This document shows positions 14,016 through 32,250 of a stretch of 64,000 bases of DNA, one piece after another (position 1 is the first letter of the stretch; every line of letters starts with the position of its first letter). Position numbers and translations under genes: made by a program. Under the pieces are notes generated by a model. That model saw nothing but the letters and a program-made list of their open reading frames with translations, had not been told where the DNA came from and ran no database searches. This stretch comes from Candidatus Thorarchaeota archaeon (GTDB lineage: Archaea > Asgardarchaeota > Thorarchaeia > Thorarchaeales > Thorarchaeaceae): NCBI GenBank assembly GCA_046482545.1, contig JAWOEX010000010.1:160001-224000 (forward strand), read 5' to 3'.

Positions 14016-14156
14016 ATGAAGTTAGTAACTCTCCACGTACCCGAGACATACATAGCTGGTCTAGAGAAGTTGGTGGATAGTCAGCTTTATCCCAATAGGT
14101 CGGAAGCAATTCGAATCGCTATCCGAGATCTCCTCAAGCGCGAGCTTTGGGGTTAG
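14016..14156 (+). CDS. 46-aa CopG/ribbon-helix-helix regulator (CdrS-like)
   Basis: MKLVTLHVPETYIAGLEKLVDSQLYPNRSEAIRIAIRDLLKRELWG; GGTGA RBS; below the ORF-track cutoff. Confidence 0.88.
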   Translation: MKLVTLHVPETYIAGLEKLVDSQLYPNRSEAIRIAIRDLLKRELWG

Positions 14157-14317: not shown

Positions 14318-15231
14318 TACAAGATTTCTGGGAAGATTTCCTGTTAGATTCCATATCAAGTCTAATCAGTTAGCAAGAATGGAGTAATTGCCCCATTTCT
14401 TGTTTTCGAATAGTTATCTTTGCATAATCTTGGCTAATCTACCAGTCAATTCTAGTCGACAGTCCACATCTGGCCCGATAGTGAATCCTTGAGGTTACAT
14501 GGCATATACTGCTGGCTTTGTTGAAGAGGTGTCCTCTTTCTTGACCACCTAGTCAAACATTTTCGCTATGATGTCCATTTTCACAGATTTATTCTAATGC
14601 AATCGCCTTGTGAAGGTGGCAACTGGTGAATTCGTATACAAGAATATCTGAAGCGTTCTCATAGTTTCCCGCTGCAATTCCTGCAATTTGTATGGCCTTG
14701 GCAAGCATTGACTAAACGGATATTTCATTGTAATCCGTCAGGTCCCCTGATCCTATGTTACCTGCTCTAGGAGAGCCAATAGTCCGTTTTTCGGTCAGCT
14801 GATTCCCTCCAAAATAGCACTATGTACACCCGTACATAGTACACCAATCCAAAATAATCCACTCTGTGCTCTCTAAATAATGAACGAAAATAGCAATTAG
14901 CCAGTCTTGAAAAGCCACCGCTCTTCCATGAGAATACAGGGAATTGAATCCACAACATCGACAGTATTGCTCAGCGTACGCGTTTCATTATGAATAACGG
15001 ACGAAACCTAAGGTTTCTTATCCAAAGAGACACTTTCCGGCTTCTTTGTTGATGACAGAAGCAGGAAGCCAGAAGAGATACTCTCTTGATAAACATGTAC
15101 AAAGCCTCTGGTAACTCAAGGAGCAAGGGCACCCTTGAGGGCAGCGACCCTAGCACGGGAAGGGTGGAACATAGAAATTCTCCAATTTGCTTTCACTCAA
15201 GTATAATGAATAGGTCAGAAGAAATGTTATT
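14318..15231 (+). mobile_element. Degenerate, longer copy (C) of the non-coding repeat element
   Basis: aagatttcctgtta at 14333 matches the end motif at 30.9 kb; 15050-15231 aligns with the 3' part of the 21.3-22.4 kb copies (aaagcc...ctcaagg...ccttgag...gggaagggtggaaca...cactcaa). Confidence 0.6.
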
Positions 15232-21103: not shown

Positions 21104-21319
21104 AGACTAACCCTTTAAGTTGATGTTTTGCAGGTTAGAATCGCCATGACTCTAAGTGGTGACGAACGAACCAGATACTCGAGAATGCTGCCACTGAGGC
21201 ATTTTGATGAGAGCAAGATGGAGTCCATCAAAGAAACAAAGAGTTGCAGTGGCTGGCACTGGCGGTTTGGGATGCAACTTGCGCAGACTGCTTACTTCGT
21301 TCGGATTCGGACATATCAA

Positions 21320-21878
21320 GATAACCCGTTTCTTACAGTTGAGTGAGTGGATCCAACTGAGGAAACTTCTGTGTTCCACCCTTCCCCTGCCAGCGTCACC
21401 GCCCCCAAGGTACCCGTAGGCCCTCGGGTCAGCAGGGGCTTTGTCCACGTTCACCGGAATAGGATTCCTCCCGCGGTCCTGGCTTCCTTCTCCTGTCGAA
21501 CTCCGGTACATCACTCCCGGCGACAGCGAGTTCTTCCACAGTTCTTACCACGGCGTGGTCATGATCACCCACCTCAGCCTTGTCGCCGTAGCTGAGGAGA
21601 TCCATCTGGACATGGTGAACAGCCGCGGACTCTCCAGGGTCTGATGGGACCCCTCGTTCGGAGAGTAAGGACTTCTGCTTAGAAGACGACGTCTTCCTCA
21701 CAGCCTTCGGGGCTGGGCGCTTCTCCCGTGGGGGAGTGGCTCACCGCCCTAGTCCTACTAGACCGGACTCCCGTACTAGGCCTAATAAACTCCCCTGCTT
21801 GAGAGAGAATCGTTACAGGAAATCTTACAGATATTTTACACTTTTCCACTCGGATTTTTTACGATTTTTGTAAAATTT
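21320..21878 (-). mobile_element. Non-coding structured repeat element, copy A
   Basis: Reverse complement aligns along its length with 21898-22441; many GC-rich hairpins. Confidence 0.8.
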
Positions 21879-21897
21879 ACCCTTTCAAGACCTTTGT

Positions 21898-22441
21898 AAA
21901 TCGTACAGAATCCTAAATAAATCAGCACAGTAGAGTGTAAGATTTCATCGAGCCCTTTTCGTGACCAAAAAGGAGTTTAGTAGACAGACAACCGTACTGG
22001 ATATCAGTAGGACCAGGCAAGTGGGCTAGCGCAGAAGCGCGAAGCACGCGGCTGAAAGATGTGAGGAAGTCCTGTGATTCTAAGCGGAAGTCCTTACTCT
22101 CCACAAAGAGAGCTTCATCGAACTCAGGAGGGTCCGCGGCTGTTCACCATGTCCAGATGGACCTTCTCATCTACGCTGACAAGGCTTATTCGGGTGATTG
22201 TGACCACGCCATGGTAAGAACTGTGGGAAACGTCGTTATCGCCGGAGTGACGACCCGGGATGACGACGGGAGGATGAAGCCAAGACCGCAGGAGGAATCC
22301 CAATCCGATGAACGTGTGCAAAGCCTCTGCTTGCTCAAGGACTGAGAAGTATCTTGGGGCGGCGACCTTAGCAGGGGAAGGATGGAACACAGGAGTTTCC
22401 TCAGTTGGATTCACTCACTCAACTGTAAGAAACATGTTATC
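21898..22441 (+). mobile_element. Non-coding structured repeat element, copy B
   Basis: Shares blocks such as gtccgcggctgttcaccatgtccagatgga and gtttcctcagttgga-n-n-cactcactcaactgtaagaaac with copy A. Confidence 0.8.
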
Positions 22442-22622
22442 CGGAGCTACTTCGAATCGTGACTGGAATTCAAGTGCGTGAAGCGGTACTGCTCGCTACA
22501 TCTCGCAAGACCGAGCATATGGAGGTGCTGATGACAGTAGACTTGACTTCGCTAACTGTTGATAGGTTTGAAATTGCAAAGGATGCCAACTGCAAGATTT
22601 GCTCTTGATTAAAGATACAATC

Positions 22623-30453: not shown

Positions 30454-30784
30454 AACGAGCCTTTTCAGCATCCAAAACTGGGAACTCAATCAGCAGTTTC
30501 CCGTCTATCCAGAAGACAGCACTCGCTGGAGAGCATGGTTTATCAAATTCGATTATGGAGAAACACTGCTGGGATTGGATGATACGCGGCTGAGCATCTA
30601 TGATGTCGGCCACCTGATCGAGAGCAGGCAGCTCTATGATAGTGACACCAAGAAGTTGCATTCAATGTATGTCATCTTGAACAAGGTCAAGGACTTCTCT
30701 ACCCAGGCTGACCTCTCGGAGTTCCCGCTGTTTGCAGAAAAACTCAGAAAGAGCACGGAGACCAAGCAACCCTCAAACAGCTGA
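30454..30784 (+). pseudogene. 5'-truncated protein fragment next to an element end
   Basis: Open protein-like frame FSIQNWELNQQFPVYP...LDDTRLSIYDVGHLIES... with no proper start, antisense to the flanking operon. Confidence 0.4.
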
Positions 30785-30920
30785 CCGGGTGGTGGGCGTG
30801 AATGCCGGAGATCTGTTAAGCTCATGACACAACCTACAATCCCAACGTAGGTTGCTAGATTCCTGACATACGGGTAGGATATCAACTTGGTGTATGCAGG
30901 ATGGTCTATCTCCCACATGA

Positions 30921-30979
30921 GGTAACAGGAAATCTTACACTTCTATGCGCCGATTTATTTAGGATTCTGTAAGATTTCC
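30921..30979 (-). repeat. Element end motif GGAAATCTTACA-N28-TGTAAGATTTCC (copy D)
   Basis: Perfect 12-bp inverted repeat with a 28-bp spacer; homologous to 21898-21945 and 21831-21878. Confidence 0.8.
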
Positions 30980-30981
30980 AC

Positions 30982-32250
30982 CTATCCAGAAATATGAGTA
31001 AGCTTCTCTCGCCATTCCCTGATCTCGCTATTCAGCCGAGCGATGTCATTCTCATTAAGAGTGGCTGTAGGGGGATACGATTTGAGCTCATTGGCTCGTT
31101 TGCCCAGTTTAAAAAGAATCGGAGTGTGAGTGTCGATAATGGTGGTGAGTTGATCTCTCACAGATTCTATTGCCACAGCCATTTCGTTGGCCTCGACATC
31201 AGCATCTACCATATCGAGCAGGTATTGCATCAGCGAATCAAGATCCTCTGGCATATCACTCTTGGGTGCAGCAGTTGTCTCTTCTTCAGTCTCCTTTTCA
31301 GAAATGGCTCTCGGTTTCATCTCTTGTCGTGTAATCGAGGTGCCCAGTTTATCGGTTGTTTCTTCAACCAGAGTAATGGCATTATCAACCTTCTCTAGGG
31401 TTTTATTGTATTTACGCTCAATATCATCCAGCTGTCTAACAATGATGCCGACAATTTCTTTTGTCTCAACAATAGAGGAATTCAGATCATGAAAGCGATC
31501 CTCGAGGGCCGATAGGTCCGCTATGTAGGTTTCAATGCTGTCAATCTTCTTCTGAATTACGTCAGATTCACTAGAATCCTTAATCTTGTTCATTGTATTA
31601 CCTAGACCGACAACTGAACCAAGAATATCCTCTATCTTCTGCCCGAAATCCTCCCTCCCGTCTTCAAGTCTTGAATCGATGGATTCCAGCTTGTCTACAA
31701 CATCCTCATCACTGGTTAGTTCTGAGAGCTGGTCTTGCAGGTCGCCAAACTTCTTGTCGGACACATTCTTTGAAGAATCGATTTCATCTTTGACATCTGT
31801 TAGCGAAAGCAGAATCTCATCAAGCTTCTTGAAAATGACTTCGGTCTCTTTCGATTCGTTCATTTCAGTAAGAAGCTCGTTCATCTTGCCAATTGTTTCA
31901 TTTGTTTCATCAAGTGTGGAAAGAGAGGAAAGATCCCCCCTTATGTCATCCATCTTTGAATTCAGAGAGTCGTGATGTTTTTCGAAATAGTCATTTATCT
32001 CATCCAGCTTCTTATGAAATGTAATTTCTTGCGAATCTACCTTCTTGGAAATATCAGGAATCTGTTCTACTTCACTGACTTGTTTTTCTATAGCAATGAG
32101 CTGCTCACTGAAGGCTTCAATATCCTCCAGCTTGGGCGTGGAGACGGAAAGCTGATTAATCTCATCACGAAGAGCGGCAACTTCGCTAAGAAGTTTGTCG
32201 AGACTCTTTTCCATTTTCTTGACACTTTCTTTGTCCTCTTTGGCGGGCAA
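30982..32250 (-). CDS. Coiled-coil protein with a small C-terminal helical domain
   Basis: Heptad-rich; internal repeat ESKETEVIFKKLD / DSSESDVIQKKID. Confidence 0.8.
   Translation of the reverse strand: MPAKEDKESVKKMEKSLDKLLSEVAALRDEINQLSVSTPKLEDIEAFSEQLIAIEKQVSEVEQIPDISKKVDSQEITFHKKLDEINDYFEKHHDSLNSKMDDIRGDLSSLSTLDETNETIGKMNELLTEMNESKETEVIFKKLDEILLSLTDVKDEIDSSKNVSDKKFGDLQDQLSELTSDEDVVDKLESIDSRLEDGREDFGQKIEDILGSVVGLGNTMNKIKDSSESDVIQKKIDSIETYIADLSALEDRFHDLNSSIVETKEIVGIIVRQLDDIERKYNKTLEKVDNAITLVEETTDKLGTSITRQEMKPRAISEKETEEETTAAPKSDMPEDLDSLMQYLLDMVDADVEANEMAVAIESVRDQLTTIIDTHTPILFKLGKRANELKSYPPTATLNENDIARLNSEIREWREKLTHISG

Follow-up and report, generated by a model that had tools for sequence, protein, structure and literature searches.

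Two gene-less elements in a Thorarchaeota genome as probable derivatives of an aCas1-TnpB transposon that keep its ends and a predicted omegaRNA scaffold

Background

The locus described here raises the question of what kind of mobile element carries a large structured RNA, and which enzyme such an RNA would serve. In a stretch of 64,000 nucleotides from a Candidatus Thorarchaeota archaeon (assembly GCA_046482545.1, contig JAWOEX010000010.1, positions 160,001 to 224,000; hereafter the window), an earlier note pointed to two diverged copies of an element of ~470 nt that was taken to be non-coding, in which changes between the copies often keep pairing. The proposal was that a non-autonomous mobile element carries a large structured RNA, possibly the guide or scaffold of an unrecognised RNA-associated transposase or recombinase.

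A candidate for the system behind such an element has been described in Asgard archaea, namely the aCas1-TnpB loci (Cas1H-Asgard-1 and -2) that are reported by Altae-Tran et al. 2023 (PMC10691335), citing Makarova et al. 2020 CRISPR J. We argue that the two copies, A and B, are internal-deletion, non-autonomous derivatives (MITE- or PATE-like) of a Thorarchaeota aCas1-TnpB transposon, a reading to which we assign a probability of about 0.85. Since A and B would then consist of the ends and the scaffold of a computationally described transposon, the structured RNA, itself real, would be of a known kind.

Results

Copies A and B within a ThiF/MoeB-family gene

Copy A (21322-21884, minus strand) is a complete mini-element that comprises a left end, a TATA-like box, an RNA region and a right end, and copy B (21891-22439, plus strand) is a more decayed mini-element in which the cores at the two ends differ. 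They are indeed diverged homologs (79.8% identity over 391 nt, E 3e-91), although the size first given was too small: A measures 563 bp and B 549 bp, and conservation reaches ~90 bp upstream of the start originally assigned, via a left end with TTACA/TGTAA motifs, down to a conserved 3' limit of the form CTGTAAG...GGTTA. In A the left end (21823-21884, minus strand) holds an outer TTACA motif, which is inverted relative to the right-end CTGTAAG, and two inner TGTAA motifs; the left end of B lies at 21891-21942 (plus strand). These left-end motifs are probable transposase binding sites.

The two left ends stand back to back on a single common core, TCAAGA (21885-21890). At the right end of A the 6-bp core (21316-21321, TCTTGA in element orientation) is the same single hexamer that is present in the intact ortholog, and the host gene resumes at the core TCCGGA at the right end of B (22440-22445, plus strand). 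That host gene belongs to the ThiF/MoeB family; its N-terminal piece (21146-21321, plus strand) is also frameshifted and its C-terminal piece follows at 22441-22608 (plus strand). In two related genomes, G001 and G002, the orthologous site is an intact ThiF-family gene, and A and B together occupy the place of ~398 bp of its sequence. The simplest reading is that of two insertions followed by an end-mediated deletion: A and B would have inserted ~400 bp apart, after which the deletion would have joined their left ends on one core.

The third copy noted at 15.1 kb is present as a decayed 3' fragment (15050-15217, plus strand). Further along the window, 30506-30990 (minus strand) is a remnant of a full-length parent element, made up of an orphan left end (30928-30990) of this family and, on the opposite strand, a piece from the C-terminal part of the giant aCas1 gene discussed below (30506-30781). 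The window also contains a small 46-codon ORF, too short to appear in the ORF list, that, read by eye, resembles a ribbon-helix-helix protein (14016-14156).

Parent elements with tnpB and a giant gene

That the element is multicopy was borne out by a profile search, which gave 93 matches in the 3.05-Mb genome (G000), ~44 of them near full length; 17 of 24 genomes of the same family had a match, and homologs of the proteins linked to the element are from Thorarchaeota. A typical mini-element consists of a left end, a ~435-nt RNA region and a right end, with a 6-bp TCNNGA repeat on both sides. The longer, ORF-bearing copies that the earlier note had suggested looking for exist: two parents of 8.2 and 8.3 kb share the ends of the mini-elements, have duplicated identical TCNNGA cores and run from the left end through the oppositely oriented giant aCas1 gene, tnpB and the RNA region to the right end. 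Of this the mini-elements retain only the ends and the RNA region and none of the protein genes, in line with the proposal of a structured RNA on a non-autonomous element.

The giant gene, divergent from tnpB, encodes 1410 or 1655 aa in the two parents and, among the 29 metagenome loci where the upstream sequence extends to 3 kb or more, adjoins tnpB in 19. Searches against Pfam, NCBIfam, ESM Atlas and PDB sequences placed the protein in no family and Foldseek by itself was weak (best E 0.006), so that its identification as Cas1-like comes from fold comparison: for a model of the N-terminal part (pLDDT 91) the top 12 chains were all Cas1 or casposase (Z 13.4-8.7, the next at 6.7). The N-terminal domain is thus predicted to have the Cas1 catalytic fold. 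Residues E79, H174 and D184 are invariant, and we take them to be the counterpart of the Cas1 triad. Past this domain lie a PD-(D/E)xK-like motif (read by eye) and a RecA/KaiC fold. No other recognisable transposase was found in either complete parent, which leaves aCas1 as the sole recognisable integrase.

The accompanying TnpB (~560 aa) matches PF07282 and NCBIfam guided_TnpB, below cut-off in both cases. It has the aspartates of RuvC-I and RuvC-III (D242 and D437), an E-to-G change at RuvC-II and an invariant alternative E403 before the zinc finger, and so, judged by its sequence, retains a nuclease triad despite the RuvC-II change. A rearranged RuvC-II site is reported to be active in TvTnpB (PMC10530073), and TnpB proteins with such a rearrangement are described in PMC10691335. 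The parents are members of the aCas1-TnpB group of Asgard archaea published there, with which they share the Asgard host, a Cas1-fold giant protein beside tnpB, a hypervariable stretch that lies, together with the GTTCACTCA motif, downstream of tnpB, and flanking repeats. The latter are probably represented by partial direct copies of the RNA region or right end beyond the giant gene (L033:8199-8270, L044:20261-20498, L052:18884-18940 and L059:16842-16913). The window differs in that it holds gene-less derivatives, and in that the hypervariable stretch behaves here as a hairpin arm.

Several other tnpB contexts were observed. One subgroup with a 560-aa TnpB abuts the 3' end of tRNA-Gly(TCC) (L016:2170-2244, L059, L087, L113, L121 and L131); in these loci, one of which is in this genome (C23), the hairpin arm mostly begins with CC. 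In another locus (L020:7203-12176; G000 C34), where a radical-SAM gene and an AbiEi/AbiEii toxin-antitoxin pair lie immediately upstream, tnpB and the RNA occur with no giant gene. In L013 (G000 C28:236398-237306) a 302-codon ORF is an in-frame fusion that combines a start which by eye is Lrp/AsnC-like HTH with the RuvC half of TnpB.

An RNA region derived from the tail of tnpB

The origin of the RNA region is not non-coding, as had been supposed. The tnpB ORF runs ~100-116 codons into the 'non-coding' body, so that the first ~330 nt of the RNA region are its C-terminal tail; the RNA region overlaps the last ~110 codons and reaches the right end, and the zinc-finger end of tnpB precedes seven of the copies. 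In A the remnant of this tail (21432-21755, minus strand) is 85% identical over 80 aa, with an early stop after 5 codons and with neither a start nor the catalytic part; in B (22010-22246, plus strand) it is 62% identical over 79 aa. In most mini-elements the reading frame is lost.

Among 56 distinct tnpB loci the three codon positions have entropies of 0.73/0.52/1.45 in the core of the gene versus 0.70/0.64/0.84 in the tail, and dS falls fourfold, from 1.54 to 0.38; the flat codon-position entropy and the drop in dS imply constraint at the nucleotide level. The number of open frames (54 of 56) is circular, since the loci had been filtered on tail length. A decayed transposase ORF with codon-periodic substitutions, which had been named as grounds for rejecting the RNA, is thus half of what was found: the region does descend from the coding sequence of tnpB, yet its substitutions, held in check by RNA structure, show no codon periodicity. 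A decayed ORF without RNA constraint is dismissed by the low dS of the tail and by covariation.

The claim that changes keep pairing holds across the family, with covariation above chance. A tree-aware G-test of our own (R-scape-like, not R-scape itself) gave six pairs at E<0.05, all canonical, and RNAalifold predicted 90 pairs, 51 of which show two-sided change. In the named structure, which was derived from the same alignment on which it was scored, two-sided change is seen in 67 of 115 pairs, compared with 41.7 for shuffled and 33-37 for slid controls; its helix 17 is mis-registered (22% paired) and should be disregarded. Folding A and B individually gives weak evidence (z -2.25 and -1.20, respectively). 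Every stem listed by the earlier note is present in the sequence. The gggtc/gaccc versus gagct/aactc comparison does contain two compensatory pairs, along with one C-A mismatch in the stem of B; the sequences gcc[UACG]ggt and act[GAGA]agt are likewise there, but the supposed tetraloop swap is anecdotal, because this loop region varies freely across the family.

The predicted omegaRNA scaffold spans ~435 nt and ~20 helices in A (21322-21756, minus strand) and ~431 nt in B (22009-22439, plus strand). At its 3' side a pseudoknot (helix 12) pairs an internal TGACC with the terminal GGT(C/T)A; it is 91% paired, with two-sided change in three of five pairs, none of them among the six pairs significant in the G-test. 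In A its 5' strand TGACC lies at 21557-21561 (minus strand) and its partner is the terminal GGTTA (21322-21326); in B the 5' strand lies at 22201-22205 (plus strand) and the partner at 22435-22439, with one pair broken. A second long-range pairing, CATCA/TGATG, is 96% paired. Within ~10 nt of the scaffold end stands a subterminal hairpin with a conserved CACTCA loop in A (21328-21366, minus strand), the 5' arm of which is the published 'hypervariable region'; in B it lies at 22395-22433 (plus strand). Rfam at gathering and E-value thresholds gave no meaningful match; this covers group I/II introns, RNase P, SRP and HEARO, none of which the earlier note could recognise either, and the sot families.

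By analogy with TnpB omegaRNAs and archaeal sotRNAs (PMC10278001, PMC12558985), with which it shares the overlap with the 3' end of tnpB, the subterminal hairpin and the terminal-motif pseudoknot, the RNA region is very probably TnpB's omegaRNA scaffold. Here it differs by its second long-range pairing and by the missing match to Rfam sot families; its ~435 nt are near the top of the 79-466 nt reported for such scaffolds (PMC12558985, PMC10278001). Of the idea of a guide or scaffold for an unrecognised enzyme, the first half is thereby supported by analogy and the second falls away, the partner being TnpB.

Ends, core and insertion sites

Insertion takes place at TCNNGA and leaves a hexamer copy at each end of the element, i.e. 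a 6-bp duplication. The two cores of a copy are the same in 18 of 30 paired cases versus six expected, a count in which a few cores were mis-parsed (~six left cores in a separate parse of the ends); a pattern search gave 25 elements with the same core at both ends, both 8-kb parents among them, a search that selects identical cores by design. In G001 the ortholog of the site of the C34 copy has a single hexamer and no gap. Two further insertions compared with putative empty sites yielded no informative empty allele; the corresponding site for the 8.3-kb parent aligns collinearly, but the sequences have diverged too far at the core. An ORF is restored across the junctions clearly in 3 of 15 cases. 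The left flank is biased to R-A-W, with T never at -3 in a sample that includes related copies, whereas the element's own right end has a T there, as a TAM would require; the bias would fit a candidate TAM.

Nested or end-to-end insertions into other copies were also seen (G000 C22:202862-204537, C9:359458-359777, C41:25041-25602 and C38:28554-29093), and the left-end lineage of B, GCTTTGT, frequently has mismatched cores.

Discussion

How the element would move and persist

We propose that the omegaRNA scaffold ends at the pseudoknotted GGTTA and that the guide would be the host DNA immediately after it. With such a guide, TnpB supplied in trans would cut the empty allele and repair would restore the element, so that TnpB and the RNA would favour retention of the element, an effect demonstrated in IS200/IS605 elements and suggested in the case of PATEs (PMC10055086). 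Movement of parents and mini-elements alike by aCas1 acting in trans, through binding of the TTACA/TGTAA motifs of the ends, is the reading that we favour, with some reserve. In a sister aCas1 group the giant gene is carried by IS607 elements that encode a serine recombinase of their own, so the transposase may be a protein other than aCas1, and the link between core and lineage discussed below is not predicted by a plain staggered-cut Cas1 integrase.

Is the RNA of the mini-elements used?

The mini-elements may instead be inert DNA debris whose structure is merely inherited from the parents and whose RNA is unused, which of all alternatives we find the least easy to set aside, while considering it on balance doubtful. 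Copy A, nearly intact with 4 of 99 pairs broken, shares 93% identity with a copy that carries tnpB. Copy B, with 17 broken pairs, is decaying, which agrees with the observation that some of its stems are broken; several copies have 17-21 broken pairs and many are fragments. Changes shared by at least three mini-element copies keep pairing in 39 of 53 cases, and may have been inherited from tnpB-bearing parents instead of reflecting selection on the mini-elements, whereas private changes mostly break pairs (33 of 136 keep pairing) and look neutral. Debris does not readily explain that the whole scaffold is kept by independent deletion derivatives, nor that a TATA-like box ~30 nt before the first helix is present in 21 of 38 mini-elements and in none of the 56 tnpB loci. 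In A this box, a putative promoter element, reads TTTATTA (21783-21789, minus strand), and in B it is degenerate (21976-21982, plus strand); we put the chances that a mini-element's own TATA box drives transcription of its RNA at about even. For B and the 15-kb fragment the debris reading probably holds, and less so for spreading lineages.

Which enzyme moves the element?

The same element and RNA could also be moved by a core-exchanging recombinase acting in trans (an IS607-type serine or a tyrosine recombinase), with aCas1 as a passenger or helper. The central NN of the core tracks the left-end lineage (38 of 54 pairs versus 8.4 expected; nine changes on the left-end tree versus 12.5), the terminal bases of the left end are not conserved while its subterminal motifs are repeated, and in some ten loci of relatives an IS607 tnpA stands tail-to-tail with the giant gene. 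Those IS607 elements, however, differ in their TnpB (mostly 710-770 aa, with a short tail), have GG-type ends and lack this RNA; IS607 uses GG and makes no duplication (PMC6188088); tnpA is absent from both complete parents; and neither a Resolvase or Phage_integrase match in G000 nor a tnpA homolog in G000-G002 was found in these assemblies, which are not closed. As that of G000 consists of 45 contigs, a missing transposase is possible. We consider a recombinase rather unlikely, and discard the IS607 serine recombinase in particular as the mover, since its association belongs to the sister aCas1 group with different TnpB and ends. In that group (L201, L204, L206, L207, L210, L212 and L036) an IS607 serine recombinase with a GG-type left end is followed by the giant gene on the opposite strand and then by a gene for a TnpB-like protein of 712-766 aa with a short tail, with none of this RNA. 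A PF00589 tyrosine recombinase match is lacking in G000 while 14 of 14 control genomes have one, which may be a miss of search or assembly. Movement by a Y1 TnpA was rejected, the genome's only Y1 gene being an unlinked truncated remnant; at L170:1474-2214 (G000 C24) a truncated IS200-type Y1 transposase runs into an unrelated gene.

A further possibility, which we regard as improbable, is an RNA-guided Cas1 transposon, in which an omegaRNA across the circle junction (guide = core plus left-end bases) and TnpB would choose and mark the target for aCas1, insertion would take place at sites matching a hexamer inherited from the donor, and gene-less copies would carry their own promoter and guide scaffold. 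The lineage-inherited core and the one-sided TAM-like bias are in its favour, as is the identity between left-end spacer and the right flank of the target, which extends modestly past the core (p 0.009-0.03; p 0.02-0.09 in another test); NN inheritance and this extension are more readily reconciled with core exchange through a circle or with junction-derived guiding than with a newly made staggered cut. Against it, 14 of 24 sites have no extension beyond the core, the TnpB keeps a nuclease triad, and a junction guide would match all integrated left ends of its own lineage. Right flanks of sibling copies are no more alike than chance, which also speaks against RNA-guided integration and excludes guiding by the donor's right flank.

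Least likely, in our view, is that the guide is, as suggested in PMC10691335, the internal stretch upstream of GTTCACTCA, with GTTCACTCA as a CRISPR-like processing site: although the stretch, between a conserved T and a highly conserved GTTCACTCA downstream of tnpB, is hypervariable in ~80 loci, it pairs with its own downstream sequence (-9.1 versus -7.2 +/- 0.3 kcal/mol for shuffled partners, ~six SD, and likewise outside the commonest class), the pseudoknot forms downstream of it, and a subterminal hairpin at most 10 nt from the scaffold end is a general omegaRNA feature (PMC10278001). By these folding energies the published 'hypervariable guide' behaves as a hairpin arm, and it is from this self-pairing that we place the guide in the flank after GGTTA.

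Relation to known systems

As derivatives of an aCas1-TnpB transposon, A and B resemble PATEs, the protein-less derivatives of IS200/IS605 (Meers et al. 2023, PMC10055086), in keeping both ends and an omegaRNA, in lacking protein genes and in depending on enzymes in trans, yet they have subterminal inverted motifs and a 6-bp duplication whereas PATEs have Y1-type ends without duplication. With casposons (PMC8464041) the family shares a Cas1-family protein, inverted end motifs and a target duplication; it differs by the absence of PolB, a duplication of 6 bp instead of 13-14 bp, unconserved terminal bases and the presence of TnpB. IS607 (PMC6188088) likewise has repeated short end motifs and tnpB at the right end, and the sister aCas1 group is IS607-borne; here, by contrast, there is no serine recombinase, the core is TCNNGA and not GG, and the motifs are inverted at the two ends. 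In the accessible text of PMC10691335 we found no description of the ends, the 6-bp core, the RNA structure or the mini-elements. Likewise, the literature consulted gave no RNA structure model, no hairpin-arm reading, no left-end-linked TCNNGA core and no TATA-like box in mini-elements, and a search for Thorarchaeota together with TnpB found none.

Conclusions

A system of known kind accounts for what was first presented as an RNA serving an unknown enzyme. The aCas1-TnpB elements are known from computation only, and the mini-copies supply their exact ends, the insertion core, the boundaries of the RNA, a structure model and a candidate TAM, with a placement of the guide that differs from the published one. 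The RNA region alone makes up ~1% of a Thorarchaeota genome, in which the element disrupts host genes. If aCas1 moves the mini-elements, it would be a Cas1 transposase outside the casposons, which would bear on the origin of CRISPR spacer acquisition, and the lineage-linked core suggests a chemistry or targeting unlike that of known Cas1 integrases.
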